A stretch of 64,000 nt of DNA, from assembly GCA_963727505.1 (NCBI GenBank), contig CAVSGP010000006.1, positions 160,001 to 224,000 of the forward strand. The letters are read 5' to 3'. Both the position numbers and the translations under genes were made by a program. The stretch's first letter is position 1. Every line of letters starts with the position of its first letter. The DNA comes from an uncultured Trueperaceae bacterium (GTDB lineage: Bacteria > Deinococcota > Deinococci > Deinococcales > Trueperaceae). Under the pieces are notes generated by a model. That model had not been told where the DNA came from and ran no database searches. It saw nothing but the letters and a program-made list of their open reading frames with translations. Positions 9,948 to 37,824 of the stretch are shown in pieces.

Positions 9948-11207
9948 TCAGTAGAGCAGTGCCAGCGCCGAGGGATCCTCCACCAGCTCCAGCAGCCGGT
10001 CGGCCCACGCCGCCGCCGCGCCGAGCTCGACGCGGGAACGGTCGAACGCCAGGCGCAGGGTCAGCGCGGTACGGACCTCCGGAGCGCCGTTGACGGCGAG
10101 GACGCGTTCGGCCAGCCTTCCAGCGACCAGGCTCACGACGCCCTCGTGCGGCGCGCTCTCGCCGGACAGCTCGGTGCGAGCGCGGGTGAGGTCGAGCAGC
10201 GAGAGCGCGGGAACGGATCCCGTCTCCGCCGGCCCGGCATCCCGCGCGGCAGCAGCCTCCCTTGCGCTCACGACGGCGGTCAGGCCGGCCGATGCGGCGT
10301 CTTCGAGGTGTGCGTCGCTCAGGGTGCCGTCTGCCACGCGGCGGTATCGCAGGCCGTGCGGGGTGCCTGCGTGGGTTTCGACCAGCGGGTTGCGCGCCCA
10401 CACGGCGGCCAGGAACCGCGCCAGCAGGTCGCCGACGTCGACCCCCGCGGTTTCGCCCGCCCCGCCTGTCGGCGTCCGGCTTTGCGCCCAGGCCACGACG
10501 GCCAGCAGCGGCGCGGCGTCGACCTCGCGGACGAACTCGGTCCAGCTTCCGGGTGCGCGCGGAACGCCGGCGGAGGTCGGGGAGGGGCGGATACCCCGCT
10601 CCGCCTCGCGCAGCACGTCGGCGGCCAGCACGGCGCCCTCCGGCCCGCTCCCCTCCAGCACGGTCACGTCCAGTCCGCGCTCCGACGCCAGACGCCGCGC
10701 CTTCGGGGACGCCGGGGTGAGGCGGTACGGGCCGGGGCGGTCGCTGGCGGCAGAGGGAGAAGTTCGTTGCGTGCCGGCCATCGCTGGGGTGCGGGTGGTG
10801 GTGGGCGCGCCCGTGGTGGGCGCCCCCGTGGTGGGCGCCCCCGTTCCGGGCTCCAGGGGGCCGTTGGCCCCCGGTCGCGGGGTCCCGGCCGGGGCCCGCT
10901 CGGGCGTGGCGGCGTCCGGTGTGGCGGCGTCCGGCTTTGGGGAGCGCGCGGAGGTATCCGCAGCCTCCCCTTCCGCGAGGATCACCGCGATGACGCTCCC
11001 CACCTTCACCTCGTCACCGGCGGCCGCGGTGACGCGCGCGAGCGTGCCGCTGGCGGGCGCGTCGAGCTCCATGGTGGCCTTGTCGGTCTCGACCTCCATG
11101 ATGGGCTCGCCCTCGTGGACCTGCTCGCCCTCCTGCTTGAGCCAGTTGAGGAGTACGGCGGTGTCCTGGTTCATCCCCAGGACCGGCATGATGACGTCCT
11201 TGGCCAC
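9948..11207 (-). CDS. E2-like lipoyl-carrier protein (lipoyl + E3/E1-binding domain + degenerate acyltransferase domain)
   Basis: Lipoyl motif VETDKAT and PSBD ASPKARRLA...GSGPEGAV are intact. The C-terminus reads LAFDRSRVELG where active E2s have DHRxxDG. Confidence 0.85.
   Translation of the reverse strand: MAKDVIMPVLGMNQDTAVLLNWLKQEGEQVHEGEPIMEVETDKATMELDAPASGTLARVTAAAGDEVKVGSVIAVILAEGEAADTSARSPKPDAATPDAATPERAPAGTPRPGANGPLEPGTGAPTTGAPTTGAPTTTRTPAMAGTQRTSPSAASDRPGPYRLTPASPKARRLASERGLDVTVLEGSGPEGAVLAADVLREAERGIRPSPTSAGVPRAPGSWTEFVREVDAAPLLAVVAWAQSRTPTGGAGETAGVDVGDLLARFLAAVWARNPLVETHAGTPHGLRYRRVADGTLSDAHLEDAASAGLTAVVSAREAAAARDAGPAETGSVPALSLLDLTRARTELSGESAPHEGVVSLVAGRLAERVLAVNGAPEVRTALTLRLAFDRSRVELGAAAAWADRLLELVEDPSALALLY
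10798..10842. repeat. 15-bp tandem repeat x3 (GAPTT) in the E2 linker
   Basis: GTGGTGGGCGC(G/C)CCC repeated three times. Confidence 0.85.
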
Positions 11208-11246
11208 GGCTCTCCTCTCGGGTCTAAGCGGGGCGCCTGGCGCGCA

Positions 11247-12629
11247 TCAGTGCTTGCCGTCCGGCCCGACGGCACCGGTGTCGGCGACGACCGGCGTGCC
11301 GGGCACGCCGGGCTTGCCTTCGGGGAAGATGCGGCCGTTGTTGTAGTTCGACTCGGTCTCCCGGATGCCGGGGAGGTCTCCGAGGGCGGTGTAGTACTTG
11401 GGCCCGGCGACCATGAGGTCCTCGGCGGGGAAGCGGCTGATGATCTCGCAGCCGTCCTTGGTCACCACCAGCTCCTCCTCGATGCGGGCGGCGGACCAGC
11501 CATCGCTGGCGGGCCAGAAGGTCTCGAGCGCGAACACCATGCCTTCTTCGATGACCTCGGGGTGGTCGAAGGAGAACAGGCGGCTGAAGATGGGCTTCTC
11601 CCAGATGTTGAGGCCGAGACCGTGGCCGTACTGCAGGGCGAAGGCGAGCTCTTCGTTGGGGAAGCCGAACTCCTGGGCCTTGGGCCAGATCGACACCACC
11701 TCGGCGGTGGTGACGCCGGGCTTGATGAGGCTGATGGCGTGGTCGAGCAGGTCGCGGCACTTGGCGTAGGCGTCGACCTGCGCCTGGCTGGCGCTGCCGA
11801 CGGCGAAGGTGCGGTAGTAGCAGGTGCGGTAGCCCATGTAGCTCTGCAGGATGTCGAAGTAGGCGGGATCGCCGGGGCGCAGCATGCGGTCGGACGCCAC
11901 GTGCGGGTGGGGGTTGCAGCGCTCGCCGCTGATGGCGTTGACGCCCTCGACCATCTCGCTTCCGTTCCGATACAGGAAGTCGCTGACGAGTCCGACCAGT
12001 TCGTTCTCGCGGACACCCGGGCGGAGGTGCTCGTAGAGATGGTCGTAGGCGGCGTCGACCATGCCCGCGGCGTGCGTGAGCAGGCTGATCTCGTCGACGG
12101 TCTTGATCTTGCGCGCCTCCAGCATGAGCTGCTGACCGTCGATGACGGTGATGCCCGCCTTCTGCAGGGCGAACAGCACCGGCGGCTCGACGATGTCGAT
12201 GGCGACGGGGTCGCCGGCGAGGCCGCGCTGGTCGAGCTCGTCCTTGATCCAGCGCGCCACCTTCTCGGCGCGGCCCATCTCGGGACTGATGGTGCCGCGC
12301 AGCATGGAGACGCCGGGGCGCGAGCGCTTCTCGCCGTCGAGCCACGGGGCGTAGAGCTGGTGGTGCTTGGCCGCCGAGCCGAAGTCCCACAGGATGGGTT
12401 CGTCGCCCTGCGGCAGCAGCGTGAAGCGCGCCACCTTGTCCTGCGCCCAGGTGCCGATGTGGGTGCTGGTGATGTAGCGGACGTTGTTCATGTCGAAGCA
12501 CAGCAGCGCTCCGGCCTCGGACTCTGCCAGTACCTTCTTGATGCGTGCCAGTCGTTCCGTGCGGAGGCGCTCGAAGTTGATGCGCTCCTCCCAGTCGACC
12601 GCCATGACGCCGTGTGTGTGAATGGCCAT
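11247..12629 (-). CDS. M24 (pita-bread fold) hydrolase, Xaa-Pro peptidase superfamily
   Basis: Creatinase-N-like ALLCFDMNNVRY; ARKIKTVDEI; YFD..., GYRTCYYRT, GHGLG, ALETF and RIEE motifs; GGAGG RBS before ATG 12629. Confidence 0.85.
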   Translation of the reverse strand: MAIHTHGVMAVDWEERINFERLRTERLARIKKVLAESEAGALLCFDMNNVRYITSTHIGTWAQDKVARFTLLPQGDEPILWDFGSAAKHHQLYAPWLDGEKRSRPGVSMLRGTISPEMGRAEKVARWIKDELDQRGLAGDPVAIDIVEPPVLFALQKAGITVIDGQQLMLEARKIKTVDEISLLTHAAGMVDAAYDHLYEHLRPGVRENELVGLVSDFLYRNGSEMVEGVNAISGERCNPHPHVASDRMLRPGDPAYFDILQSYMGYRTCYYRTFAVGSASQAQVDAYAKCRDLLDHAISLIKPGVTTAEVVSIWPKAQEFGFPNEELAFALQYGHGLGLNIWEKPIFSRLFSFDHPEVIEEGMVFALETFWPASDGWSAARIEEELVVTKDGCEIISRFPAEDLMVAGPKYYTALGDLPGIRETESNYNNGRIFPEGKPGVPGTPVVADTGAVGPDGKH

Positions 12630-12675
12630 CAGGAATCCGCCTCCCTCGTAAGGGGTCTGTTGCGCTCCCGGCGAA

Positions 12676-13695
12676 TCAGCCGGGCAGGCACATCTCGCGC
12701 GCGAGCGCGGTGAGCTGCTTCGGGGTGGGGACGGTGACGTCCTCGAGGACGGGGGAGAAGGGCACGGGCACGTCCATCGCCCCGAGCCGGCGAACCGGCG
12801 CATCGAGGTAGTAGAACGCGCCGTCGGCGATGACGGCGGCGAGCTCGGCACTCGCGCCGTAGCTGCGGTGCCCTTCGTCGACCACCACGACCCGGCCTGT
12901 CTTGCGGGCCGAGTCGATGAGGGTGTCTGCGTCGAGCGGGGCGAGCGAGCGCGGGTCGACGACCTCGGCGGAGATGCCGTGGGCCTCGAGTTGTTCGGCC
13001 GCCTGCAGTGCGACCAGGACCATGCTGCTGGTGGCAACGAAGGTGATGTCGGTGCCCTGGCGCTTGATGTCGGCCTGCCCGAGCGGGATGAAGACGTCAC
13101 CCTCGGGGACGGGCCCCTTGTCCTGGAAGCTGAGCTTGTCCTCGATGATGACGACGGGGTTGTCGTCGCGGATGGCGGCCTTCATGAGGCCCTTGGCGTC
13201 GTAGGGCGTGGCGGGCAGCGCCACCTTCAGGCCGGGGACGTGGCTCACCCAGGCGTGGAGGCTCTGGCTGTGCTGGGCGGCGCTGCGCCTGGTGGCGCCG
13301 AGGGTGGTCCGGAGGACCATCGGCACCTTGAGCTTGCCGCCGGACATGTAGTGGGTCTTGGCGGCCTGGTTCACGAGCTGATCCATCACCAGCGTCAGGA
13401 AGTCGCCGAACATGAGGTCGACCACCGGGCGCATGCCGGTCATGGCGGCGCCGACGGCCAGGCCGGTGAAGCCGGCCTCGCTGATGGGGGTGTCGCGGAC
13501 GCGTTCGGGACCGAACTCCTCGACGAGCCCCGAGAGCACCTTGAAGGGGGTGCCGGCCTCGGCCACGTCTTCGCCCAGGATGAAGACGCTGGGGTCGCGG
13601 CGCATCTCCTCGGCGAGCGCCTCGTTCACGGCCTGGGAGAAGGTGATGGTGCGCGCCTGACTCTCCTCGGAGAGCGTTCGGCTAGGCGTAGACAT
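12676..13695 (-). CDS. ThDP-dependent 2-oxoacid/acetoin dehydrogenase E1 beta subunit
   Basis: LGEDV, RVRDTPISEAGFTG, DQLVNQAAK, AQHSQS and YLDAPV motifs. Confidence 0.92.
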   Translation of the reverse strand: MSTPSRTLSEESQARTITFSQAVNEALAEEMRRDPSVFILGEDVAEAGTPFKVLSGLVEEFGPERVRDTPISEAGFTGLAVGAAMTGMRPVVDLMFGDFLTLVMDQLVNQAAKTHYMSGGKLKVPMVLRTTLGATRRSAAQHSQSLHAWVSHVPGLKVALPATPYDAKGLMKAAIRDDNPVVIIEDKLSFQDKGPVPEGDVFIPLGQADIKRQGTDITFVATSSMVLVALQAAEQLEAHGISAEVVDPRSLAPLDADTLIDSARKTGRVVVVDEGHRSYGASAELAAVIADGAFYYLDAPVRRLGAMDVPVPFSPVLEDVTVPTPKQLTALAREMCLPG

Positions 13696-14722
13696 GCAGC
13701 GTGACCTCGCTCTCGTCGGGGTAGGGGGCGTCGAGTCCGAACGACACCGCTTCGTCGGCTTCGGCGCGGACCTCGGTCTCCACCGTTTCGAGCTCCGCGG
13801 CGGTGGCGATCCCCTGCTCCTGCAGCCAGGTGGCGTACAGGGTGAGGGGGTCGCGTTCGCTCTTCCAGTGCGACTCCTCGTCCTTGGAGCGGTAGTAGTC
13901 GCGCTGGATGTCGCCGACGTGGTGCCCGTAGTAGCGGTAGGTGTGCGCCAGCAGGAACGAGGGTCCGTCGCCTTTGCGGGCGCGCTCGACCAGCTCGTGG
14001 GCCACGGTGCTCACGGCGGTGACGTCCTGGCCGTCGACTTCGGCGGTGTGGATGCCGAAGGCGCGCGGCCGGTCGAGGATGGCGCCGGCGGTGGTCTCCT
14101 CGAAGTGGGTGTATTCGTTGTAGAGGTTGTTCTCGCAGACGTAGATGACGGGGAGCTTCCAGAGCTGTGCCATGTTCATGACCTCGTAGAGCAGGCCCTG
14201 GCCGAGCGCGCCCTCCCCGAAGAAGCACACCGCCACCCGGTCGGTGCCCTGCAACCTGGCCGACAGCGCCGCGCCGGTGGCGATGCCTGCCGAGCCGCCG
14301 ACGATGGCGTTGGCGCCGAGGTTGCCGTTCTCCTGGTCGGCGATGTGCATGCTGCCGCCCTTGCCGCGGTTGTAGCCGGCGGCCTTGCCCAGCAGCTCGG
14401 CGAACATCAGGTCGAGCCGGGCGCCCTTGGCGATGCAGTGGCCGTGACCGCGGTGGGTGCTGGTGATGTAGTCCTCGCGGGTCAGGGCGTCGCATACGCC
14501 GACGGCGACGGCCTCCTCGCCGGCATACATGTGCGTGAGGCCGGGCATCTTGGCGGTGAGGTAGAGGTCGTTGGCGTGCTCCTCGAACACGCGGATGCGC
14601 ATCATCTGGCGGTAGGTGAAGAGGTGGCGCGGGGGGTCGGCATCGGCGGATACTCCGGCCCCCGGTGCCTTCCCGCCCGCCTTGGGATTCGTCGGCTTGT
14701 TCGCTGTGGATCGACCCGTCAC
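13682..14722 (-). CDS. ThDP-dependent 2-oxoacid/acetoin dehydrogenase E1 alpha subunit
   Basis: THRGHGH, GKGGSMH, GANAIVG, FFGEGA...ENN (variant GDG motif) and TYRYYGHH motifs. GTG 14722 has an AAGGAG RBS; alternative start 14788. Confidence 0.92.
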   Translation of the reverse strand: MTGRSTANKPTNPKAGGKAPGAGVSADADPPRHLFTYRQMMRIRVFEEHANDLYLTAKMPGLTHMYAGEEAVAVGVCDALTREDYITSTHRGHGHCIAKGARLDLMFAELLGKAAGYNRGKGGSMHIADQENGNLGANAIVGGSAGIATGAALSARLQGTDRVAVCFFGEGALGQGLLYEVMNMAQLWKLPVIYVCENNLYNEYTHFEETTAGAILDRPRAFGIHTAEVDGQDVTAVSTVAHELVERARKGDGPSFLLAHTYRYYGHHVGDIQRDYYRSKDEESHWKSERDPLTLYATWLQEQGIATAAELETVETEVRAEADEAVSFGLDAPYPDESEVTLHVYA

Positions 14723-14774: not shown

Positions 14775-15524
14775 TCAGGCGGCGTCACCGTCCAGCTCGT
14801 CTTCGCGATCGTCGGCTTTCCGTTTCGTCTTCTCGAGCGCCAGCCGGCTGTCCTCGCGCACCTGTGCGAGGTGGGCCAGCATCGCGCTCCTGGCGGCGTC
14901 CGCGTCCCCGGCCTCGATGGCGACGAGGAGGGTGCGGTGGTGGCGCTGGCCGCGCATCGGGCCTCCGCTCACCTGGAAGATGTGCCCACGCAGCTCCTGC
15001 AGAAGGTCCACCACCGAATCGAGCAGGCGGGGGACGAAGTGGTTCTGGGTAGCGACGGCGAGCGCGATGTGGAAGCGGTTGTCCGCCTCGATGAAGGTCT
15101 TGGCGTCGTCCAGCGCGTCGTCCATGTCGTGGACGGCGGCGCGCAGGACCTCGAGATCGGCAGCGGTCCGGCGGAGCGCGGCGCGGGCGGCGATCTCGGG
15201 CTCGAGCAGCTCCCGAACTTCGACCATCTCCTCGGCCCGTTCCTCGGACGCGAACCCCATCATGAGCCGCAGCGACTGCTTCAGCGCGTTGACGGTGCCG
15301 TCGACGACGAACGTGCCCTGGCCGCGGCGTACCTCGACCAGGCCGTTCTGGATGAGCGTCTTCATGGCCTCGCGGATGACGGTCCGGCTGACGCCGTAGC
15401 GCTCCCCCAGGCTACGCTCGTTGGGCAGCTGGTCCCCACTGGTCAACTCGCCAGAGAGGATCAATTGGCGAATCCTCTCCACGACCTGTTCGTAGAGCTT
15501 GCGGTGTTGAAGCACATCCGTCAT
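14775..15524 (-). CDS. GntR/FadR-subfamily transcriptional regulator
   Basis: wHTH GDQLPNERSL...GVSRTVIREA...RRGQGTFV; FCD domain RELLE, DNRFH, QNH and HLA. Confidence 0.94.
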   Translation of the reverse strand: MTDVLQHRKLYEQVVERIRQLILSGELTSGDQLPNERSLGERYGVSRTVIREAMKTLIQNGLVEVRRGQGTFVVDGTVNALKQSLRLMMGFASEERAEEMVEVRELLEPEIAARAALRRTAADLEVLRAAVHDMDDALDDAKTFIEADNRFHIALAVATQNHFVPRLLDSVVDLLQELRGHIFQVSGGPMRGQRHHRTLLVAIEAGDADAARSAMLAHLAQVREDSRLALEKTKRKADDREDELDGDAA

Positions 15525-15560
15525 ATTGTAAACCCATGCATAAGATGCAATCTCTTGCAG

Positions 15561-15581
15561 GAGGTATGGTGGTAATACCTC
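15561..15581. promoter_or_regulatory. Putative FadR-type operator O1 (module A)
   Basis: GAGGTAT-GGTGGTA-ATACCTC inverted repeat; one of four copies of a shared 21-bp motif. Confidence 0.7.
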
Positions 15582-15596
15582 TTTTGGAATGGTGCG

Positions 15597-15678
15597 AACC
15601 TAGCACGCCTCCGAGCGCTCTGTCAAGAATTTTCGAGGGCTCGAGGGGTTTGACACACCCCCTCTGTTGTGCTAACGT
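15597..15678. promoter_or_regulatory. Back-to-back sigma70 promoters (module A)
   Basis: Plus: TTGACA(15650)-17-TAACGT with TGn. Minus: TTGACA(15626-15621)-18-TAGGTT with TGn. Confidence 0.8.
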
Positions 15679-15807
15679 TGGCCGCGTCCACAACTTGATT
15701 CTGTAGGTCTTGCGATTCCTTGCGAGCCGAGCCGATCCCCCGCCGAGGAGCGGGGCGCCGGCGCAACCAAAGGGGTGGTCCAGGCGCCCGAAGCGATTCT
15801 TACCGTC

Positions 15808-15843
15808 CGGTGGTATGACCACCACACCACTAATAGTTATCGA
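15808..15843. promoter_or_regulatory. Putative FadR-type operator O2 block (module A)
   Basis: CGGTGGTATGACCACCACACCACTAATAGTTATCGA; core TGGT-N3-ACCA; 35/36 identical to 32791-32826. Confidence 0.72.
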
Positions 15844-15950
15844 GCGCGTGTTCGCGTGTCCGGAGGGGCAGGGGCCACCGCTCGCGCCGTCGCACGGGCA
15901 AGCGAGTGCGCGTGCCGCATGGTCTCGCACCGCGTGGAGGAGAACCTGAC

Positions 15951-16829
15951 ATGGCAAGAATAGGATTCGTGGGCCTCGGGGTGATGGGCGGCCGCGTGGC
16001 CAAGCGACTGCTGGACGCGGGGCACACCGTCACGGGTTACAACCGTACGCGTTCGAAGGCGCGCTGGCTGGAGGACGCCGGCGTGGCCTGGGGCGACACT
16101 CCCCGGGCGGTCGCCGAGGCATCCGACGTCGTGTTCACCATGGTGACCAACACGACCGCCCTGGAGGCCGTGACACAGGGCGAGGACGGCGTGCTCGCTG
16201 GGCTCGCTCCGGGCAAGATCTACATCGACATGAGCACGGTCAGCCCGGCCTATAGCCAGGGACTCGCCGCGCAGGTCAAGGAGCGTGGCGCCACCATGCT
16301 CGACGCGCCGGTGTCCGGCAGCGTGGAGACGCTCGAGCAGGGCAAGCTCACCTTCATGGTGGGCGGCGAGCGCAGCGACTTCGAGAAGGTAGAGCCCATC
16401 CTGCTGGACGTGGGCCCGAAGGCGACCCACGTCGGCGCCAACGGCCTGGCGGTCACCATGAAGATCGCCACCAACCTGAGCCTGGCCGTGCAGATGCTGG
16501 CCTTCAGCGAGGGCCTGTTGCTGGCCGAGCGTAGCGGGATCAAGCGGGAGACGGCCGCCGAGGTGCTGCTCAACAGCGTCATCGCGTCCCCGATGGTCAA
16601 GTACCGCGGCCCCTTCGTCCTCCAGATGCCGGAGGAGGCCTGGTTCGACGTCAACATGATGCAGAAGGACATGAACCTCGCCCTCGAGCTGGGCCAGGAG
16701 GTCAACGTGATGCTCCCCACCACGGCCGCGACCAACGAACTGCTGACCGCCGCCCGCGGGCTGGGGCTCGACAAGCAGGACTTCGCCATCGTCTTCGAGG
16801 TGCTCGCGCGCCTCTCCGGGGGGAGCTGA
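15951..16829 (+). CDS. Beta-hydroxyacid dehydrogenase (3-hydroxyisobutyrate/tartronate semialdehyde reductase family)
   Basis: IGFVGLGVMG, YNRT, DMSTVSP, DAPVSG and MKIATN (catalytic Lys) motifs. Confidence 0.92.
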   Translation: MARIGFVGLGVMGGRVAKRLLDAGHTVTGYNRTRSKARWLEDAGVAWGDTPRAVAEASDVVFTMVTNTTALEAVTQGEDGVLAGLAPGKIYIDMSTVSPAYSQGLAAQVKERGATMLDAPVSGSVETLEQGKLTFMVGGERSDFEKVEPILLDVGPKATHVGANGLAVTMKIATNLSLAVQMLAFSEGLLLAERSGIKRETAAEVLLNSVIASPMVKYRGPFVLQMPEEAWFDVNMMQKDMNLALELGQEVNVMLPTTAATNELLTAARGLGLDKQDFAIVFEVLARLSGGS

Positions 16830-30311: not shown

Positions 30312-30941
30312 ATGGAGAAGCAACGCATCAGCTACGTGGATCCCAAGACGCTCGAGGACCCGAAGATGCTCGAGGAGCTACAGCGCTGCGCCCGCGAGGG
30401 CACGCCCCGGCCCGAGAGCTCCGCGGTGCGCGCCCACGTGCCCGCGGTGTTCTGGTCGTTCGCGAACAGCTGGCGCGACGTGTTCAAGCACGGCGTGTGC
30501 GACCACGCCATCAAGGAGCTGTGCAGGGTGTACGTGTCGCGGTCGGTGAAGTGCGAGTACTGCGGCAACCAGCGCTCCATGACGGCGGCCAGGGACGGTC
30601 TCGAGGAAGAGGACTACCGCGCGCTGATGGAGTTCGAGAGCGCAGGCCGCTACGACGACCGTCAGAAGGCCGCGCTGTCGCTGGCCCAGGCCATCGCCTG
30701 GCACTCCGACCTGAGCGACGAGGACTGGGCACGGCTTCACCGGCACTTCAGCGAGCCCGAACTGGTGGAGCTGGGCTACTTCATCGGCCTGACGCTCGGC
30801 CAGCAGAGCTTCCTCAGGCTGCTCAACATCGGGCACCACGAGGTGCTGGATCTCGGGGACGCCTCGCTGGCGCCCGGGTTCGAGACCAAGGAGGAGATGG
30901 CCGAGACGCGTGCGTCGGAGGACTACTGGGCCCGCAAGTGA
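30312..30941 (+). CDS. AhpD/carboxymuconolactone-decarboxylase-like protein
   Basis: KELCRVYVSRSVKCEYC (CxxC), RQKAAL and LHRHFSEPELVEL motifs; AAGGAG RBS. Confidence 0.78.
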   Translation: MEKQRISYVDPKTLEDPKMLEELQRCAREGTPRPESSAVRAHVPAVFWSFANSWRDVFKHGVCDHAIKELCRVYVSRSVKCEYCGNQRSMTAARDGLEEEDYRALMEFESAGRYDDRQKAALSLAQAIAWHSDLSDEDWARLHRHFSEPELVELGYFIGLTLGQQSFLRLLNIGHHEVLDLGDASLAPGFETKEEMAETRASEDYWARK

Positions 30942-30944: not shown

Positions 30945-32408
30945 CTACTCCGGCAACACCATCTGGATCGCCTTCACGCGGCTGAAGTTGCGCATCGCTT
31001 CGAGGAAGTCCTTCTTGCGACCCACGCCGCTGCGCTTGTAGCCGCCGAAGGGTAGCCCCAGCTCACCGGTGTTGACGCGGTTGACCGACACGACCCCGGC
31101 CTCGATGCGGGTGGCCATGCGGTGGGCGACCCCCAGGTCGCGGGTCCAGACCCCGCTGGTGAGTCCGTAGTCGACGGCGTTGACGATGGCAACGGCCTGA
31201 TCCTCGTCGGCGAACGGCAGGACGCCGGCGACGGGACCGAAGACCTCGGACGTCATGATCTCGGCGTCGGCCGCTGCCTCCGTCACCACCGTGGGCGCGA
31301 TCCAGAAGCCGCCCTTCAGGCGCGCGTCCGACGGCAGGTCGGCGTGTGCGGGGATGCAGGCCCCGGCGGCGGCGGCGCGCTCGAGGGCGCCCTGCACCTT
31401 CTCCTGCTGGCGCTTGCTGACCATCGGCCCCACGATGGAGCGTTCGTCGAAGCCCTCGCCCACGTAGAGGCCGGCCACGGCGGAGGTGAAGCGCTCCATG
31501 AAGGACGGGTAGATCGACTCGTGCACCAGCACCCGCTCGCTGCCCGAGCACGCTTGCCCGCTGTTGAAGAAGGCGCTGCGCACCATGCCCTCCACGGCCT
31601 TGTCGAGATCCGCGTCGGGGAAGATGATGGAGGCGTTCTTGCCGCCGAGCTCCATCATGGTGGGCAGGATGCGCTTCGCCGCGGCGGCCAGGATCTTCTC
31701 GCCGGTGAGGTCGGAGCCGGTGAAGGCGATGAAGTCGATGCCGCGGTGCGCCACGAGCTGCACGCCGGTCTCGACGCCGCCCGTGACCACGTTGAGCACG
31801 CCCGGCGGCAGGACGTCGGCCGCCAGCTCGGCGATGCGCAGCGATGACAGGGGCGTCTCGGGCGCGGGCTTGAGGACAACGGTGTTGCCGGTGGCGAGCG
31901 CCAGCGCCGCGAAGTCGGCGGTGTGCATGGGGGGCCAGTTCCAGGGGATGATGACGGCGACCACCCCGTAGGGCTCGTAGACGATCTTGCGCATCTCCGT
32001 CGGGCTGTCGTAGACGCTCTGGCCGTAGAACTTGTCGGAGGCGCCGGCGTAGAAGCGGAAGGTGCGTTCGGCGTTGGTGACGTCGCGCGCCGACTGCACG
32101 CGCGGCTTGCCGTTCTCCCACGTCTCGAGGTCGACGAGCTCGTCGTGGTGCTCGTGGATCAGGCGGGCGATCTCGAAGAGCATCGCGCCCCGCTTCTCGG
32201 GGCTGACCCAGCGCCAGGTACGGTAGGCGTCGCGGGCCGATGCCACCGCGTGGTCGACGTCGGCTTCGCTGGCGGAGGGGGCCTCGCCGAGCACCTCGCC
32301 GGTCGCGGGGTTCACGACCTCCAGGGCTGAGGTGCCGTCACCGTCGACGAACGCGCCGCCGATGAGCATCTTCCAGGTCGCGTGGTCTTTGTAGGGGTGG
32401 TAGGCCAT
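30945..32408 (-). CDS. Aldehyde dehydrogenase
   Basis: PWNWP, KPAPETP, FTGS, ELGGK, NSGQAC, EVFGP and PFGGYKRSG motifs. Confidence 0.93.
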   Translation of the reverse strand: MAYHPYKDHATWKMLIGGAFVDGDGTSALEVVNPATGEVLGEAPSASEADVDHAVASARDAYRTWRWVSPEKRGAMLFEIARLIHEHHDELVDLETWENGKPRVQSARDVTNAERTFRFYAGASDKFYGQSVYDSPTEMRKIVYEPYGVVAVIIPWNWPPMHTADFAALALATGNTVVLKPAPETPLSSLRIAELAADVLPPGVLNVVTGGVETGVQLVAHRGIDFIAFTGSDLTGEKILAAAAKRILPTMMELGGKNASIIFPDADLDKAVEGMVRSAFFNSGQACSGSERVLVHESIYPSFMERFTSAVAGLYVGEGFDERSIVGPMVSKRQQEKVQGALERAAAAGACIPAHADLPSDARLKGGFWIAPTVVTEAAADAEIMTSEVFGPVAGVLPFADEDQAVAIVNAVDYGLTSGVWTRDLGVAHRMATRIEAGVVSVNRVNTGELGLPFGGYKRSGVGRKKDFLEAMRNFSRVKAIQMVLPE

Positions 32409-32545
32409 CCGCTGTCTCCTCCGCCGGGGCCGGCCCTCGGCGCGTTACGACAAGAACTCGGGCGCCTGCAAGCTAGTGCGCGCGCCCGCTTCGCTGGAGC
32501 GCCCGCCGGGATGCAAGCGCATACATAATATGTAATGTCTTGCAA

Positions 32546-32566
32546 GAAGTATGGTGGTCATACCTC
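32546..32566. promoter_or_regulatory. Putative FadR-type operator O1 (module B)
   Basis: GAAGTATGGTGGTCATACCTC; 19/21 identical to 15561-15581. Confidence 0.7.
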
Positions 32567-32580
32567 TCGGGAATGCCGTG

Positions 32581-32662
32581 AAGGTAGCATGTTGCTCGCG
32601 CCCCTGTCAAGGAACGCGGCGGTTCGCACGGGTTTGACAGCCCCCCGCCGGTGTGCTAGTTT
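32581..32662. promoter_or_regulatory. Back-to-back sigma70 promoters (module B)
   Basis: Plus: TTGACA(32634)-17-TAGTTT with TGn. Minus: TTGACA(32610-32605)-18-TACCTT with TGn. The -35 boxes are 23 bp apart, as in module A. Confidence 0.8.
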
Positions 32663-32790
32663 GAGCGGCGTCCACAACTAGATTCCGGTACTCTCGCCGC
32701 TACGCTCGGGCGGCCCGGGCACCGCTTCACCTGGCGAAGCTGTCCATGGTCCAAGGAGCCGCTCGCGTGGCACGTTGCAGTCCGATCCCC

Positions 32791-32826
32791 CGGTGGTATG
32801 ACCACCACACCACGAATAGTTATCGA
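32791..32826. promoter_or_regulatory. Putative FadR-type operator O2 block (module B)
   Basis: CGGTGGTATGACCACCACACCACGAATAGTTATCGA. Confidence 0.72.
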
Positions 32827-33111
32827 ACATGTTGTCATTTCCGGGACCCGAGGCGCGCTCAAGCGCCCGGGCGCCGCCTGGTTGCGCGCGCCCGTCCCTT
32901 GCAGGCCGCTCCGCGGCCCTGGTCCGGTGTGTCCTCTCTGGAGGTGTTCGCTCCCGGCATGGCAGCCGCCCACCGCTTCGCGGTGCGGTCCTCCATGCGG
33001 ATCGAGGAGGTGGGCGCTCCAACCTGACCGGGCGCGCCGAGCGTACGTGGGGTCCGCCCGACGTGCCGCCCAGAACACCTTGGCATCACGTGCTTGCCCA
33101 TGGAGGCAGAC

Positions 33112-34311
33112 ATGCACAAGAGGATCACGGCGCTCGTCGTCGCGGCCGCGCTGCTCGCAGCGCTCGGCGTCGCGGCTGCGCAGGGCCCCATCAAGATCGG
33201 TATCTCGCTCTCGCTCTCCGGAGACTTCTCTGCCGACGGGCAGGGGTTCCAGCAGGGCTACAAGCTGTGGGCCGACCAGGTCAACGCCAACGGGGGGCTG
33301 CTCGGGCGCCAGGTGCAGCTCGACATCGTCAACGACAACTCCAGCCCCGACCAGGTGCAGACCAACTACCAGAAGCTCATCACGGTGGACAAGGTGCCGC
33401 TCGTGCTGGGGCCGTTCTCGACGCTGCTCACCAAGCCCGCGTCGGTGGTGGCCAACCGCTACGGCTACGCCATGGTGGAAGGCGCGGGCGGCGCGCCGTC
33501 GGTGTTCAACCGCGGGCTGAAGAACGTCTTCGACGTGGCACTGCCGGTGATCAACGACCTGGACAGCTTCACGCAGTACGTCCTCTCGTTGCCCGCCTCC
33601 GAGCGCCCCAAGACGGTGGCCTACGCCACCAACGACGACCCCTTCACGCAGCCGCAGATCGAGCGCTCGCGCAAGCTGTTCGAGGCCGCCGGGCTGAAGA
33701 CGGTGTCGTACCAGACCTATCCGTCGGAGACCACCGACTTCAACCCCATCGCCGACAAGATCATCCAGTCGAAGGCCGATCTCGTGGTGGCCGGGACCTT
33801 CATGCCCGACATCGTTGCCTTCGTGCAGCGCTTCCGGCAGCAACACTACAACCCGCAGGGGCTCATCGCGACGGCGGGGCCCGACCTGGGCTCGCAGTTC
33901 ATCCAGGCCGTCGGCGGTGCGCAGAACGCCGAGGGCATCCTGGTGCCCAACACCTGGTACCCGGGTGCCGAGAATCCCGGAAACGCAGCGTTCGTGAAGG
34001 CGTTCATCGCCAAGTTCGGAGGCAAGGCCGCCGACATCAACGGCGATGCCGCCGAGGGATACGCGGCCGGCCAGGTGCTGCAGGCGGCGGTCGAGAAGGT
34101 CGGCAGCCTCGACAACGCCAAGATCATCGCCGAGCTGCACTCCGGTGACACCTTCAAGAGCATCCTCGGTGACGTGACCTTCAACGACGTGGGCGAGAAC
34201 ACCGCGGCCAAGGCCTACCTGTTCCAGTGGCAGAACGACCACTACCTGCCGGTCTATCCGGACAGCGCAGCCGCGGCGCCGTTCGAGTACCCCAAGCCGG
34301 CCTGGAATTGA
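33112..34311 (+). CDS. Liv/HAAT-type ABC substrate-binding protein (copy 2)
   Basis: Signal peptide; QGPIKIGISL...NGGLLGRQVQLDI; clear paralog of 18480-19670. Confidence 0.9.
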   Translation: MHKRITALVVAAALLAALGVAAAQGPIKIGISLSLSGDFSADGQGFQQGYKLWADQVNANGGLLGRQVQLDIVNDNSSPDQVQTNYQKLITVDKVPLVLGPFSTLLTKPASVVANRYGYAMVEGAGGAPSVFNRGLKNVFDVALPVINDLDSFTQYVLSLPASERPKTVAYATNDDPFTQPQIERSRKLFEAAGLKTVSYQTYPSETTDFNPIADKIIQSKADLVVAGTFMPDIVAFVQRFRQQHYNPQGLIATAGPDLGSQFIQAVGGAQNAEGILVPNTWYPGAENPGNAAFVKAFIAKFGGKAADINGDAAEGYAAGQVLQAAVEKVGSLDNAKIIAELHSGDTFKSILGDVTFNDVGENTAAKAYLFQWQNDHYLPVYPDSAAAAPFEYPKPAWN

Positions 34312-34331
34312 GGTGAGGACCTACGGGTTCC

Positions 34332-34434: not shown

Positions 34435-35310
34435 ATGCGCATAATCATCGACGCCATCATCACGGGCGTGCTGTCCGGCGGGATCTACGTCCTCATGGCG
34501 CTGGGGCTGACGCTGATCTTCGGCGTGATGGACATCATCAACGTCGGCCAGGGAGCGCTCGTGATCCTGGGCGCCTATCTCAGCTACGTCCTGCAACAGC
34601 ACCTCCACATCGACCTCTTCCTCGGGCTGCTCATCACCATGCCGGTGATGTTCGCCTTCGGGGTGGCGCTGGAAGCGGCGTTCGTGCGCCCCATCCGCTG
34701 GGAGCGCACCACGCTGTCCATCCTCATCACGTTCGCCATCGCACTGCTCATCCAGGGGGCGCTGTCGCTGGTCTTTTCGACCAACCTGGTGCAGATGCAT
34801 GCCTGGTACGTCGACCACTCTGTCAAGATCGGCAGCTTCTACCTGGCGTGGATCTACATCTTCGATTTTCTGTTGAGCGTCGTGCTGGTCATCGGCCTCT
34901 ACCTGCTCCTGAACCGCACCAAGTTCGGCGCCGGACTGCGCGCTTCCATGCAGAACCGCACCGCCGCGCAGCTCATCGGCATCGACGTCGAGCGCGTCTC
35001 GGCGATCACCTTCGGCATCGGTGTGGCCCTGGCCGCCGCCGGCGGCATGGCCTACGGCGCGACCTCGGCGTTCAACCCCAACAGTCAGTACGACCTGATC
35101 TCGCGGCTGCTGGCCATCATCATCCTGGGCGGCATGGGCAGTCTCCGTGGCGCCGTCGTGGCGGGCTTCGGGATGCTCGTCATCGAGGACGTCACCTCGG
35201 TGGTGTGGTCGCCGGTATGGGCCAGCACGGTGTTCTACATGGCGCTGGTGCTGGTGCTGGTGGTCCGGCCGCAGGGGCTGTTCGGGCGCATGGCGGGTAG
35301 GCAGCAATGA
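34435..35310 (+). CDS. Liv-type ABC permease (LivH-like)
   Basis: GLTLIFGVMDIIN and ILGGMGSL motifs. Confidence 0.92.
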   Translation: MRIIIDAIITGVLSGGIYVLMALGLTLIFGVMDIINVGQGALVILGAYLSYVLQQHLHIDLFLGLLITMPVMFAFGVALEAAFVRPIRWERTTLSILITFAIALLIQGALSLVFSTNLVQMHAWYVDHSVKIGSFYLAWIYIFDFLLSVVLVIGLYLLLNRTKFGAGLRASMQNRTAAQLIGIDVERVSAITFGIGVALAAAGGMAYGATSAFNPNSQYDLISRLLAIIILGGMGSLRGAVVAGFGMLVIEDVTSVVWSPVWASTVFYMALVLVLVVRPQGLFGRMAGRQQ

Positions 35311-36371
35311 AGACGCTGCGCCCCGTCCTGCTGCTCGCGCTGCTGGTCTTCGCGGTGGCCTTCCCGCTGCTGTTCCCCAACCCCGCCGTCGACACGGTGG
35401 CGGTGCTGACCGTCATGTTCGCCGCCGCCGTCACCGCCTGGAACGCCTTCTCGGGGTACAGCGGCTACATCTCCATCGGCCACGCCGCCTTCTTCGGGAT
35501 CGGCTCCTACGCCGTCGCCATCCTGTGCCAGGACTGGCATGTGCCCGGCGGCTTCCTGCCCTTCCTGCTGCTCCCGCTCGCCGGGCTCATCGCCGCGGTG
35601 CTCGCCGTCCCGATGGGCTGGGTGGCGCTCAGGACGCGGAAGCACACGTTCGTGATCCTGACCATCGCGATGTTCTTCATCATGCAGCTCATGGCCTTCA
35701 ACCTCCGCAGCATCACCAACGGCTCGCGGGGCATGAGCCTGCCGATCCCCACCGCCTGGAGTGGCACCTTCTACGACCTGCCCTTCTACTACGTGGGGCT
35801 GGCCGTGCTGCTGCTGGCATTGGGCGTGTCGTGGTGGATCCGCAACTCCAAGTACGGACTCGGGCTGCTCGCGATCCGCGACGACGAGGACCGCGCCCGC
35901 GGCCTCGGCGTGCGTACCGGCGCTTTCAAGCTCACGGCTTTCGTCATCGCCGCCTTCTTCTTCGGCGTGGTGGGGGGGCTCCACGCCTACTTCGTCGAGT
36001 CGATCTTCCCGGCCTTCGCCTTCGATCCGCTGATCGACCTGATGGTGGCCCTGATGGCCTTCCTGGGCGGGCTCGGCACGCTGGCAGGGCCCGTGCTCGG
36101 TGCGCTCATCCTGGAGCCGGCCCAGCAGTACTTCACCATCTGGTTCAGCAAGCCCGGTTACTACCTGATGATCTACGGGGCGCTGTTCCTGCTCATCATC
36201 CTGCTCCTGCCCCAGGGGATCATCCCGGCTCTGCGCGCGCGCTTCACGCGGACCGAGGCGCTGGCGGGGCCGGTGCGGCGTGGGGACGCCGCCGACGGCC
36301 CGTCGGGCGACGGATTGTCGGCGGCCGCCTTGATCGGGGACGGCGACGCGGAGCCAGGGGGTCGAGCATGA
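35307..36371 (+). CDS. Liv-type ABC permease (LivM-like)
   Basis: GYISIGHAAFFG, AIRDDEDRA and GGLGTLAGP motifs. Confidence 0.92.
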   Translation: MKTLRPVLLLALLVFAVAFPLLFPNPAVDTVAVLTVMFAAAVTAWNAFSGYSGYISIGHAAFFGIGSYAVAILCQDWHVPGGFLPFLLLPLAGLIAAVLAVPMGWVALRTRKHTFVILTIAMFFIMQLMAFNLRSITNGSRGMSLPIPTAWSGTFYDLPFYYVGLAVLLLALGVSWWIRNSKYGLGLLAIRDDEDRARGLGVRTGAFKLTAFVIAAFFFGVVGGLHAYFVESIFPAFAFDPLIDLMVALMAFLGGLGTLAGPVLGALILEPAQQYFTIWFSKPGYYLMIYGALFLLIILLLPQGIIPALRARFTRTEALAGPVRRGDAADGPSGDGLSAAALIGDGDAEPGGRA

Positions 36372-37099
36372 GTCTGCTGGCAGCGACCGGGGTGTCCAAG
36401 TCGTTCGGCGGCGTGCAGGCGCTCGACGGCTGCTCGATCACGGTCGAGAAGGGAAGCCTGACCGGCCTCATCGGACCCAACGGCTCGGGCAAGACCACGC
36501 TGTTCAACGTCATGACGGGCTACGAGACGGTGGACGCGGGCGAGATCGCCTTCGACGGCAAGCCCATCACCAACGCCACCCCCGACCGGGTGTTCCAGCT
36601 CGGTATCGCGCGCACCTTCCAGCTCACCCGCATCTTCCCGCGCCTTTCGGTGCTGGAGAACATGCACGTGGCGGCCCAGCGGCAGGGCTGGCGCTCGCTG
36701 TTCGGGCGCTGGAGCTCGTCGACGGAGCACGAACGGGCGCTGGAGCTGCTCGGCTTCGTGGGCCTCACCCGCCTCAAGGACGTGCCCGCGCGCAACCTCT
36801 CCTACGGCCAGAAGAAGCTGCTCGAGTTCGCCTACGTACTGGTGGCCGAGCCCGAGGTGATCCTGCTCGACGAGCCGGCCGGAGGCGTCAACCCGACCAT
36901 GATCCGCTACCTGACCGAGCGGATCCGCGAGCTCCACGAGCGCGGGGTGACCTTCCTGATGGTGGAGCACAACATGGAGTTCGTGATGGGCCTGTGCGAC
37001 CGCGTGGTCGTCATGAACCACGGCGAGACCATCGCCGATGGCGACCCCGAGACCGTCCGCAGCGATCCACAGGTCCTCGAAGCCTACCTGGGGGCGTGA
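36368..37099 (+). CDS. Liv-type ABC ATPase (LivG-like)
   Basis: [18 protein letters not shown] and VEHNM motifs; ATGA overlap. Confidence 0.92.
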   Translation: MSLLAATGVSKSFGGVQALDGCSITVEKGSLTGLIGPNGSGKTTLFNVMTGYETVDAGEIAFDGKPITNATPDRVFQLGIARTFQLTRIFPRLSVLENMHVAAQRQGWRSLFGRWSSSTEHERALELLGFVGLTRLKDVPARNLSYGQKKLLEFAYVLVAEPEVILLDEPAGGVNPTMIRYLTERIRELHERGVTFLMVEHNMEFVMGLCDRVVVMNHGETIADGDPETVRSDPQVLEAYLGA

Positions 37100-37101
37100 G
37101 C

Positions 37102-37824
37102 ATGCTTCTGGAGATGCGCAATGTAACGGCCGGCTACGACGGCAGTGACGTACTCAAGTCTCTCGACCTCAACGTGGAGGAGGGCTCGGTCACGTGCATC
37201 GTCGGGCCCAACGGTGCGGGTAAGTCGACGGTGCTGAAGGTGGTGAGCGGCCTCCTCAAGCCGCGGCGCGGCGAGATGCTCTTCCAGGGACGCGCCGTCA
37301 CCGGGCTCAACCCGCGCAAGGCCCTGGGGCTCGGCATCGTCCAGGTGCCGCAGAACCACAGTCTCTTCCCGGACATGACGGTCCGCGAGAACGTCCGCCT
37401 GGGCGGCTTCACCATCCCCGATCCCGCCCGCGTCGAGGAGCGCATGCGTGAGGTCGAAGCGATGTTCCCGATCGTGCGTGAGCGTGCCGGCGAGAAGGCG
37501 GGCAACCTCTCCGGTGGCCAGCAGCGGCTGGTGGAGTTCGCGCGCTCGCTGATGCTCGACCCCCGGATGATCCTGCTCGACGAACCCTCGATGGGTCTCG
37601 ACCCGAAGACCATGAAGACGGTGTTCGAGACCGTGGCGCGTATGCATGAGGGTGGCCGGACCATCCTGCTGGTCGAGCAGAACGTGCGGGCCGGACTCGC
37701 CATCGCCACCCGCGGCATCGTGTTGGAGAGCGGGCAGGTGCGCCTGGAAGGTTCGCACGACGAGGTCCTCGGCAACCCGCAGATCGGCCGGCTCTACCTG
37801 GGCACCGCGCTCGCCGACGCCTGA
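37102..37824 (+). CDS. Liv-type ABC ATPase (LivF-like)
   Basis: [23 protein letters not shown] and LVEQN motifs. Confidence 0.92.
   Translation: MLLEMRNVTAGYDGSDVLKSLDLNVEEGSVTCIVGPNGAGKSTVLKVVSGLLKPRRGEMLFQGRAVTGLNPRKALGLGIVQVPQNHSLFPDMTVRENVRLGGFTIPDPARVEERMREVEAMFPIVRERAGEKAGNLSGGQQRLVEFARSLMLDPRMILLDEPSMGLDPKTMKTVFETVARMHEGGRTILLVEQNVRAGLAIATRGIVLESGQVRLEGSHDEVLGNPQIGRLYLGTALADA

Follow-up and report, generated by a model that had tools for sequence, protein, structure and literature searches.

The question raised by this locus is whether a large catabolic gene island of a Trueperaceae bacterium encodes one linear route for a single compound, or several sets of enzymes brought under common control. 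The window, which is the whole stretch of DNA analysed here, comprises 64,000 nucleotides of contig CAVSGP010000006.1 (positions 160,001 to 224,000) from an uncultured member of this family; the genome measures 3.26 Mb and is 97% complete, and the host is a salt-loving relative of Deinococcus. The island lies at window positions 9948 to 37824 and consists of 24 genes in four transcription units (TU1 on the minus strand, TU2 on the plus strand, TU3 on the minus strand and TU4 on the plus strand), which were assigned from strand and spacing only. The original prediction had viewed the island as a single route of uptake, ring opening and oxidation. The analysis presented below suggests that the island is probably a composite catabolic regulon under a single repressor, in which two modules that are separate elsewhere (modules A and B) are combined with lineage-specific additions. 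The individual pathway steps are less certain than this overall picture.

The evidence for common control comes from the intergenic regions. A repeat search demonstrated that the regions 15525-15905 and 32409-33093 have two blocks in common, which are 82% and 79% identical. The third block common to both carries an exact 15-nt palindrome, GGTGGTATGACCACC, of which just two copies exist in the 3.26 Mb genome, at 15809-15823 (O2) and 32792-32806 (O2'). These blocks and the palindrome agree with the original prediction that the island contains two copies of one promoter/operator module. Moreover, the window contains two copies of TGGTNNNACCA, where 0.4 would be expected, and 4 of 100 shuffles reached two. 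A further copy of GGTGGTATGACCACC with one mismatch, on contig 10, was dismissed as it lies inside a coding region. The remaining elements of the control regions are as follows:

15525-15905, between TU1 and TU2: control region 1
15563-15579, control region 1: O1, imperfect palindrome GGTATGGTGGTAATACC
15621-15626 (reverse strand) and 15650-15655, control region 1: putative divergent -35 boxes
32409-33093, between TU3 and TU4: control region 2
32548-32564, control region 2: O1'
32634-32639, control region 2: putative -35 box

Both control regions were then aligned with their counterparts in two relatives, giving a footprint over five intergenic regions of three genomes. The invariant elements were the upstream imperfect palindrome O1 (GTATGGTGGTnATAC), two back-to-back TTGACA boxes (one per strand), a TGTGCTA element, and the downstream palindrome O2 with its flank (GGTATGACCACCACACCACnAATAGTTATCGA). 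In addition, the same operator half-site adjoins the GntR gene in genomes G017 and G019 and in loci L015, L021 and L023. This arrangement suggests two divergent putative promoters, each followed by a putative operator for the neighbouring FadR-type repressor. The assignment of the regulator to the FadR type, made earlier from the sequence, is confirmed by its Pfam GntR and FCD domains, and its nearest NCBIfam models were NanR, LldR, PdhR and GlcC, all below cutoff. As the regulators behind these models respond to lactate, pyruvate, glycolate or sialic acid, the inducer is suggested to be a small 2-hydroxy or 2-oxo acid. The shared control module supports, as a prediction from sequence, the earlier view of a co-regulated uptake and catabolism island. 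A consensus promoter and terminator scan was little informative (0 promoter-like sites; 2 terminator-like sites against 4.3 expected).

Module A is composed of the GntR regulator, a beta-hydroxyacid dehydrogenase of the 3-hydroxyisobutyrate dehydrogenase (HIBADH) family, the alpha and beta subunits of a thiamine diphosphate (ThDP)-dependent E1, an M24 metalloenzyme (M24a), a lipoyl E2 and sometimes an aldehyde dehydrogenase (ALDH1), plus a Liv importer. Module B is composed of a Liv importer, a DMT transporter, an ACMSD-like protein, a CrtO/PYROXD2-like flavoprotein, a hydrolase that resembles 2,6-dihydroxypseudooxynicotine (DHPON) hydrolase, and a metal-poor M24 protein (M24b). The distribution of module A was examined in 80 loci, which were the best 80 of 496 confirmed M24a relatives from a pattern scan of one genome per species. 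The neighbours were counted by tblastn with the window proteins; many loci were short, and 40 of the 80 extended for at least 8 kb on both sides. The loci belonged to Deinococcota, Chloroflexota (Anaerolineae, Ktedonobacteria, Chloroflexia and Thermoflexus), Actinomycetota, Acidobacteriota, Pseudomonadota (Rhodobacterales) and Dormibacteraceae, and M24a was at least 70% identical across phyla. The following genes were found beside M24a (SBP denotes a substrate-binding protein):

E1 beta (at least 60% identity): 68/80
E1 alpha: 60/80
GntR: 53/80
E2: 46/80, an undercount because the query was a degenerate copy
HIBADH-like dehydrogenase: 45/80
SBP2-like: 22/80
DHPON-hydrolase-like: 21/80
ALDH1: 15/80
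Flavoprotein: 8/80
M24b: 8/80
EamA: 4/80
SBP1-like: 4/80
Amidohydro_2: 3/80
Gfo/Idh/MocA, CMD, ALDH2, NHL flank and CCG flank: 0/80

Of the 40 loci that extend for 8 kb or more to both sides, 34 have E1 beta, 25 the HIBADH-like gene and 17 the hydrolase. The gene order GntR-HIBADH-E1a-E1b-M24a-E2-(ALDH)-Liv-(hydrolase) recurs among the loci, and module A keeps its operon organisation in at least five phyla. Co-occurrence in other genomes, which had been named beforehand as a test of the island, was therefore found for one part of the gene set, namely module A (E1 beta in 68/80), and failed for another, namely Gfo/Idh/MocA, CMD and ALDH2 (0/80).

The surroundings of module A vary among its carriers. 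The cluster on plasmid pP92_e of Phaeobacter inhibens encodes an SBP-like protein, an SDR, the M24 protein, E1 alpha, E1 beta, a lipoyl protein, an ALDH, a catalytic-only E2 and LpdA, and adjoins a sugar-type ABC system. A plasmid of Paenarthrobacter ureafaciens SD-1 (NZ_CP101190) carries a fused E1, E2, VOC, amidase and Liv genes together with RidA, a cupin, a dehydrogenase, the M24 gene and a flavin reductase; a zeta toxin family protein and a Pycsar effector and cyclase pair are also annotated on this plasmid (L095, NZ_CP101190.1, 13607-15964). In the available part of the report on strain SD-1 (PMC10873849), the sad genes are placed on another plasmid and an M24a-type cluster is not mentioned. 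Furthermore, four Trueperaceae loci (L020-L023) carry an SBP_bac_5 gene and two to three adenine-deaminase-like genes ahead of the core, and genes of the xanthine dehydrogenase (XDH) type, with molybdenum cofactor (MoCo) and [2Fe-2S] domains, stand beside module A in eight Chloroflexota or Actinomycetota loci. In Rhodococcus opacus pR1CP1 and a Streptomyces plasmid, the M24a homologue is alone or unannotated.

Module B shows a nested distribution within the family. Among 41 genomes (that of the window and 40 relatives), M24a orthologs were present in 11, M24b in 9 and the hydrolase in 8, and module B was found only in genomes with M24a, except G001 (70% complete). In genomes G006, G016 and G017, which have M24a, neither M24b nor the hydrolase was matched. 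G003 shows synteny over the whole island, as does G007 minus the flavoprotein; the island is also found in G019, where the second Liv set was not seen within the 40 kb fetched. Module A alone is retained in G006, as TU1, the dehydrogenase, ALDH1 and a LivF remnant, and in G017, as GntR-E1a-E1b-M24a with a degenerate E2. The Gfo/Idh/MocA, CMD and ALDH2 genes were seen only in the window's own genus and one other Trueperaceae genus. In addition, six Actinomycetota loci (L045, L053, L068, L070, L075 and L084) combine M24a with B-type genes (flavoprotein, hydrolase, M24b, Amidohydro_2 or Liv-1-type) and have no E1. As kin are not independent samples, the nesting of B in A carriers is a hint, and not a test, that B feeds A. 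The idea of a single route for one substrate is not supported by these data, in which only part of the set co-occurs elsewhere and G006 and G017 have module A alone.

The window has about 70% G+C, and the genes were therefore called from third-position G+C and frame plots. A set of 26 open reading frames (ORFs) was scanned against Pfam and NCBIfam, and selected proteins were searched against PDB sequences. The gene content and families named earlier were recovered at their places by these searches, with a count of 24 genes rather than 23:

9948-11207, minus strand: pseudo-E2, 419 residues (Biotin_lipoyl 61 bits, E3_binding 39 bits, degenerate catalytic domain)
11247-12629, minus strand: M24a, DddP-like M24 metalloenzyme (Pfam Peptidase_M24 130 bits)
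12676-13695, minus strand: E1 beta (Pfam Transket_pyr 157 bits, Transketolase_C 139 bits)
13682-14722 (alternative start 14788), minus strand: E1 alpha, ThDP-dependent, of the pyruvate dehydrogenase (PDH)/acetoin type (Pfam E1_dh 255 bits)
14775-15524, minus strand: FadR/FCD-type GntR regulator, first gene of TU1 (Pfam GntR 88 bits, FCD 101 bits)
15906-16829, plus strand, TU2: beta-hydroxyacid dehydrogenase, HIBADH family (Pfam NAD_binding_2, NAD_binding_11)
16834-18324, plus strand, TU2: ALDH1 (Pfam Aldedh 492 bits)
18480-19670, plus strand, TU2: SBP of Liv importer 1
19786-20667, plus strand, TU2: LivH of Liv importer 1
20664-22523, plus strand, TU2: LivM-LivG fusion of Liv importer 1, 619 residues
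22523-23257, plus strand, TU2: LivF of Liv importer 1
23351-24304, plus strand, TU2: EamA/DMT transporter (Pfam EamA, two stretches)
24301-25309, plus strand, TU2: ACMSD-like Amidohydro_2 gene, frame broken (Pfam 135 bits)
25350-26930, plus strand, TU2: CrtI/CrtO/PYROXD2-like FAD flavoprotein (Pfam Amino_oxidase, NAD_binding_8, DAO)
26923-27981, plus strand, TU2: DHPON-hydrolase-like alpha/beta hydrolase, FrsA-like, of the C-C hydrolase clade (PDB 2jbw)
27974-29167, plus strand, TU2: M24b, M24 fold with Creatinase_N (Pfam)
29249-30221, plus strand, TU2: Gfo/Idh/MocA oxidoreductase, frameshifted
30267-30941, plus strand, TU2: CMD/AhpD-like (YciW-related) protein (Pfam CMD 23 bits)
30945-32408, minus strand: ALDH2, which constitutes TU3 (Pfam Aldedh 516 bits)
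33094-34311, plus strand, TU4: SBP of Liv importer 2
34435-35310, plus strand, TU4: LivH of Liv importer 2
35307-36371, plus strand, TU4: LivM of Liv importer 2
36368-37099, plus strand, TU4: LivG of Liv importer 2
37102-37824, plus strand, TU4: LivF of Liv importer 2

Both Liv sets are complete as HAAT importers, with a Peripla_BP_6 SBP, two BPD_transp_2 permeases and two BCA-motif ATPases, and a LivM-LivG fusion comparable to that of the first set was seen in the Actinomycetota locus L053. The SBPs matched only distant Leu/Ile/Val-type binders in PDB (best E 2e-22), from which the ligand is not deducible. No enzyme of the island reached an equivalog-level NCBIfam cutoff, and a subfamily cutoff was passed by E1 beta alone. 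The island Pfam scan revealed no ring-cleaving oxygenase or Mo-hydroxylase, as the original prediction had stated for the gene set, and PF02738, the domain of Mo-hydroxylases of the XDH type, was not found in the whole 97% complete genome.

The central enzyme of module A is M24a, whose top NCBIfam model was DddP (NF043017), with 103 bits against a cutoff of 600. Among solved structures, a full-length alignment was obtained only with DddP entries (4b28, 4s00, 4s01 and 4rzy), and this alignment was weak (about E 1e-17). Compared with prolidases, the ligand positions D259, H336, E369 and E384 are retained and the second, bridging Asp is C270; the complete Asp/Asp/His/Glu/Glu metal site is thus lost through an Asp to Cys replacement. 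This Cys is invariant in a sequence alignment of M24a, and an equivalent Cys was found in 80 of 83 tblastn high-scoring segment pairs of related loci, of which the three others did not fit the pattern. The best 120 of at least 8000 protein matches to M24a with E of 1e-20 or better are at least 71% identical and are named only "Xaa-Pro peptidase family", and the ESM Atlas gave unnamed M24 clusters only. An AlphaFold2 model built on an 11-row alignment (mean pLDDT 57) was too poor for a fold search, and a complex prediction of M24a with the pseudo-E2 scored 0.00, which counts neither way. In M24b, four of the five metal-ligand positions of prolidase 5cdl are substituted (D to E, D to Q, E to Q and E to G). 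The ligand losses of M24b and C270 of M24a justify the earlier description of two atypical M24-fold proteins.

The E1 subunits of the island have the ThDP motif and transketolase-like domains of 2-oxoacid/acetoin dehydrogenases. E1 alpha matched human PDH E1 alpha best in PDB (190 bits), followed by a Thermus 2-oxoacid dehydrogenase (141 bits). Its ThDP motif reads GEG...ENN, and among orthologs of at least 60% identity, 30 have GEG, 29 have GDG and one gave no motif match. E1 beta scored 390 bits against the cutoff of 321 for the PDH E1 beta subfamily (NF006667).

The E2 of this complex is unusual. Its lipoyl-Lys motif ETDKA (K43) is invariant in eight Trueperaceae sequences, and so is the E3-binding domain; on the other hand, no Pfam 2-oxoacid_dh (PF00198) match was found, FDRSRVELG stands in place of DHRxxDG, and SNLG has also been replaced. 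Neither motif is retained in any of the nine Trueperaceae E2 copies examined, and these copies are 31-58% identical to each other, compared with 69-96% for the neighbouring genes. On its motifs, the Trueperaceae E2 is a predicted catalytically dead protein in which the lipoyl and E3-binding domains are kept; the missing PF00198 match and the replaced catalytic motifs bear out its earlier naming as a pseudo-E2. Canonical E2 proteins scoring about 250 bits or more to PF00198 occur in Chloroflexota loci L077 and L047 and in Tropicibacter L046, and two Rhodobacterales clusters (L058 and the Phaeobacter plasmid) combine a degenerate lipoyl protein with a catalytic-only E2. PF00198 genes are absent from the island, and four are present elsewhere in the window's genome. 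Moreover, no Pyr_redox_2 gene for an E3 was found among the 26 ORFs scanned; such a gene is present in Tropicibacter L046 and the Phaeobacter plasmid. In the linker of the pseudo-E2, three tandem 15-nt units at 10796-10858 encode GAPTT repeats.

The other enzymes could be placed in families at various distances. The best PDB match of the DHPON-like hydrolase was 2jbw (E 1.3e-48, query 6-348 against 23-362), followed by the C-C hydrolases AntI and Ayg1, and its GVSLG nucleophile motif is at residue 216. Similarly, the Amidohydro_2 protein matched human ACMSD best (E 2e-35). Both likenesses had been noticed from the sequence alone, and the PDB searches corroborated them, for the hydrolase over its full length. 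The sole PDB match of the flavoprotein was the phytoene desaturase 4dgk, and its best NCBIfam model was the ketolase CrtO (293 bits against 1000); its gene overlaps the hydrolase gene by 8 bases, and the two co-occur in L045, L053, L054 and L085. M24b scored 45 bits with DoeA (TIGR02993, cutoff 613) and matched creatinase entries of PDB with E 3e-7 and 4e-6, so that it falls outside the family cutoffs. The PDB relatives nearest to the HIBADH-like enzyme were 3pef, 3doj, 3cky (2-hydroxymethylglutarate dehydrogenase), 3pdu, 1vpd and tartronate semialdehyde reductases, and its nearest NCBIfam model was tartronate semialdehyde reductase (216 bits against 341); 3pef and 3doj, whose PDB titles are generic, we take to be of the gamma-hydroxybutyrate (GHB) dehydrogenase/glyoxylate reductase types. 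The NCBIfam models nearest to ALDH1 were lactaldehyde dehydrogenase, SafD, GAPN, PhnY and succinate semialdehyde dehydrogenase (SSADH), and those nearest to ALDH2 were aminobutyraldehyde dehydrogenase and betaine-aldehyde dehydrogenase, all below cutoff. The CMD protein scored 55 bits with NF053654 (cutoff 310).

Two reading frames of the island are broken. The Amidohydro_2 gene starts with GTG at 24301, overlapping the EamA stop, and includes a DVHCH metal motif; one extra nucleotide near 24540, absent from G003 and G019 with their intact frames, puts this motif out of frame with the remaining protein. The Rossmann N-terminus of the Gfo/Idh/MocA protein lies in another frame, with one extra base near 29325-29344 compared with G003, G019 and G007; a near-identical 274-nt metagenome contig (run X2) is one base shorter at 29344, and at a depth below 5 this is weak evidence; the extra base may be due to an assembly error or to a difference between strains. 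The M24a gene of the same-genus genome G003 (C4:144139-145519; L011 and L102) is also split in two frames, covering residues 1-213 and 213-460. These frameshifts may be assembly indels or real decay.

On the right of the island, 26 nt after the second LivF gene, a 738-residue protein with Fer4 and two CCG domains (HdrD/GlpC/LdhH-like) is encoded at 37851-40067. This gene stays adjacent in G003, G007 and G006 and was found in none of the 80 distant loci (0/80); because the adjacency is kept in these three genomes, a common transcript with TU4 is possible. Next, at 39800-42829, comes a large PAS-PAS-GAF-HD_5 signalling protein; its start is uncertain, as the end of the CCG gene lies within its longest ORF. 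The left flank encodes a secreted-type carboxylesterase (6346-8025) and an NHL-repeat protein (8229-9725), the latter being retained next to the island in G003 only.

If the composite regulon is adopted as the working picture, the Liv systems would import a small carboxylate. Where module B is present, the flavoprotein may oxidise a larger precursor and install a carbonyl to yield a beta-dicarbonyl, the DHPON-hydrolase-like enzyme would cut this compound in a retro-Claisen reaction, and the ACMSD-like decarboxylase and the metal-poor M24b could trim the hydrolase product. M24a would cleave a carbon-heteroatom bond of the small carboxylate, into which module B would convert its larger precursor, by hydrolysis or by DddP-type elimination, and a terminal or alpha hydroxyl would be oxidised by the hydroxyacid dehydrogenase and ALDH1. 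Oxidative decarboxylation or cleavage of the resulting 2-oxoacid or alpha-hydroxyketone would then fall to the PDH/acetoin-type E1 and its lipoyl carrier, and a small 2-hydroxy or 2-oxo acid intermediate may release the repressor.

Several points weigh against this scheme. As no equivalog-level NCBIfam match was obtained, every reaction in it is one that we infer, and the order of B before A was drawn only from the nested distribution of kin. The same core is fed by sugar-type or peptide-type importers in other genomes, so that the substrate of M24a may be a common intermediate further downstream and not the imported compound. For plain pyruvate, there would be little reason to have a dedicated PDH-like complex; moreover, the dead E2, with no E3 or catalytic E2 in the island, leaves the fate of the acyl group unexplained. 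In addition, two genes of module B or the add-on set (Amidohydro_2 and Gfo/Idh/MocA) are frameshifted in the assembly. Within the composite regulon, we tentatively propose that the M24a/E1/E2/hydroxyacid dehydrogenase set could be the core of an undescribed, widespread pathway, in which M24a with its Cys site would act on a carbon-heteroatom bond to supply the substrate of a dedicated ThDP/lipoyl complex, and in which the Trueperaceae possess a dead E2 resembling an E3-binding protein. If true, this would be a bacterial lipoyl scaffold without its own acyltransferase, which implies a borrowed E2 or a hydrolytic release of the acyl group.

Two other explanations concern the island as a whole. 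The proposal that all of the roughly 24 genes jointly serve a single N-heterocycle, which would be imported, ring-opened and oxidised along one linear route, draws on the one operator common to all units, the strong DHPON-hydrolase likeness together with an ACMSD-like decarboxylase, and the synteny of the whole island in G003 and G019 and, minus the flavoprotein, in G007. The XDH-type MoCo and [2Fe-2S] genes beside module A in eight loci also recall the pair of Kdh and DHPON hydrolase in nicotine catabolism. This route is nevertheless rather unlikely: Gfo/Idh/MocA, CMD and ALDH2 are beside M24a in none of the loci outside the family, G006 and G017 retain module A alone, G007 has no flavoprotein, sugar-type and peptide-type importers accompany the same core elsewhere, and no ring-hydroxylating or ring-cleaving enzyme was found in the island and no PF02738 in the genome. 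At the opposite extreme, the operons could be functionally unrelated and merely share a regulator and a neighbourhood, as the occurrence of the modules apart in other genomes and the lack of conservation of the add-on genes outside the family might suggest. We regard this as very unlikely in view of the duplicated control region with a genome-unique palindrome conserved in three genomes, the nesting of module B within module A carriers among the 41 genomes, and the linkage of M24a to B-type genes in the six E1-less Actinomycetota loci.

Three further explanations concern the substrate of module A. It is quite unlikely that this module degrades a 3-substituted 2-hydroxy C3/C4 acid such as 2,3-dihydroxypropane-1-sulfonate (DHPS), sulfolactate or an onium analogue, in which case the GHB-dehydrogenase-like enzyme and the SSADH/SafD-like ALDH would make the acid, M24a would eliminate the substituent to give an enol and then a 2-oxoacid, the PDH-like complex would consume the 2-oxoacid, and EamA or TauE would export the leaving group. 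Such a scheme is consistent with the full-length alignment of M24a, obtained for no solved structures but those of the C-S lyase DddP, and with the dehydrogenase relatives (3pef, 3doj and the sulfolactaldehyde reductase 6sm7), the ALDH1 models (SafD, GAPN, lactaldehyde dehydrogenase and SSADH), the regulator nearest to LldR, PdhR and GlcC, and the PDH-like E1. Exporters of the DUF6/EamA and DUF81/TauE types accompany sulfo-lyases, and TauE is beside M24a in 3/80 loci and EamA in 4/80. Yet none of the family matches reaches its cutoff, pyruvate as the substrate would make a dedicated complex redundant, the island has no sulfite-handling gene, and Liv-type importers are, to our knowledge, not known as sulfonate carriers; genome checks were non-discriminating (Oxidored_molyb 2, TauE 6 and GD_AH 1, with TauE in 13 of 14 control genomes). 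A highly improbable alternative is the catabolism of pantothenate or pantoate, with M24a as the orphan pantothenase, oxidation of pantoate by the dehydrogenase and the ALDH, and E1/E2 taking the resulting 2-oxoacid. Pantoate, a gamma-hydroxy 2-hydroxy acid in the classical pathway, suits a GHB-dehydrogenase-like enzyme with an ALDH, and a PanE/ApbA-family gene stands beside the core in L058, the only annotated locus with a PanE-like gene. According to the available part of a 2023 source (PMC10393543), the pantothenase gene was still unidentified. Against this, E1 resembles PDH and not branched-chain 2-oxoacid dehydrogenase (190 bits for the human PDH against 141 bits for the Thermus enzyme), no dimethylmalate dehydrogenase was found, two importers are odd for a vitamin, and module B would be unexplained. 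Breakdown of ureides or purines, with the M24 proteins as urea-releasing amidinohydrolases and with glyoxylate handled by the ThDP enzyme and the tartronate-semialdehyde-reductase-like dehydrogenase, appears exceedingly improbable. The top NCBIfam model of the dehydrogenase, the adenine-deaminase-like genes beside the core in L020-L023, the XDH-type genes in other loci, and the absence of canonical uricase, OHCU decarboxylase and ureidoglycolate lyase from the genome would fit it. However, neither an XDH-type domain nor urease alpha was found in the 97% complete genome, so that those routes could neither make urate nor use urea, and glyoxylate carboligation needs no lipoyl E2; an allantoicase search was uninformative, as the control gave no match anywhere. 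None of these four substrate classes (an N-heterocycle, which is a possible candidate, 3-substituted 2-hydroxy acids, pantothenate and ureides) is supported enough to be named.

In a limited literature search, no published description of an M24/E1/hydroxyacid dehydrogenase module was found, and the public annotation of the module is generic throughout. Together with the lack of NCBIfam equivalogs, this supports the original prediction that the island does not match known clusters. What is new here is a GntR-type regulon whose operator is unique in the genome, together with the nested occurrence of module B in A carriers, the family-wide dead E2 and the two frameshifts. The core of module A recurs in many soil and marine bacteria, and the conservation of M24a at 70% identity or more across phyla, mostly beside its own ThDP/lipoyl complex, suggests that the compound is common in the environment; its bacterial breakdown is missing from pathway maps and genome annotation, the copies being labelled "Xaa-Pro peptidase". 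The window adds a hint that a second enzyme module may feed this core, and a lineage with E2 as a dead scaffold. Furthermore, the clean definition of the regulon (one repressor and four putative operator sites) provides a handle on the inducer, and cultured carriers exist (Ktedonobacter robiniae, Phaeobacter inhibens with plasmid pP92_e, and Paenarthrobacter ureafaciens SD-1), so that the substrate question is directly testable.

The composite regulon may finally be compared with known systems. Like the acetoin dehydrogenase system (AcoA/AcoB/AcoC/AcoL) and the PDH-type complexes, the island has a heterotetramer-type E1 with a ThDP motif, nearest to PDH E1, and lipoyl and E3-binding domains. 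It differs from them in that an M24 gene stands between E1 beta and E2 in most loci, a hydroxyacid dehydrogenase is a fixed partner, the island E2 has no catalytic His, and the island has no E3 gene. The E3-binding protein (protein X) of the eukaryotic PDH complex has lipoyl and E3-binding domains with a dead E2-like core and works beside a true E2. The pseudo-E2 appears to resemble protein X in architecture only, and the island has no catalytic E2.

M24a shares with the dimethylsulfoniopropionate (DMSP) lyase DddP (4b28, 4rzy and 4s00; NF043017) the M24 fold over its full length, including the N-terminal domain, and differs in the bridging Asp, which is now Cys, and in a quite different gene context. 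M24b resembles creatinase, an enzyme that works without metal, and the ectoine hydrolase DoeA/EutD in its Creatinase_N and M24 fold with most ligands substituted, and it scores far below their cutoffs. The hydrolase shows full-length homology to the DHPON hydrolase of Paenarthrobacter nicotinovorans pAO1 (2jbw), with the GxSxG motif and the same C-C clade. In the nicotine pathway of pAO1, the genes of Kdh, 6-hydroxynicotine oxidase and dihydroxypyridine hydroxylase accompany that of DHPON hydrolase, whereas the island hydrolase is adjoined by a CrtO-like flavoprotein; neither the Kdh Mo-hydroxylase, nor 6-hydroxynicotine oxidase, nor dihydroxypyridine hydroxylase was among the island Pfam matches. 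The regulator falls below every NCBIfam cutoff of the FadR-subfamily GntR repressors (LldR, PdhR, GlcC and NanR), and it shares with them the GntR winged helix-turn-helix and FCD domains, palindromic operators of the TGGT-N3-ACCA type, and a divergent, probably autoregulated layout.

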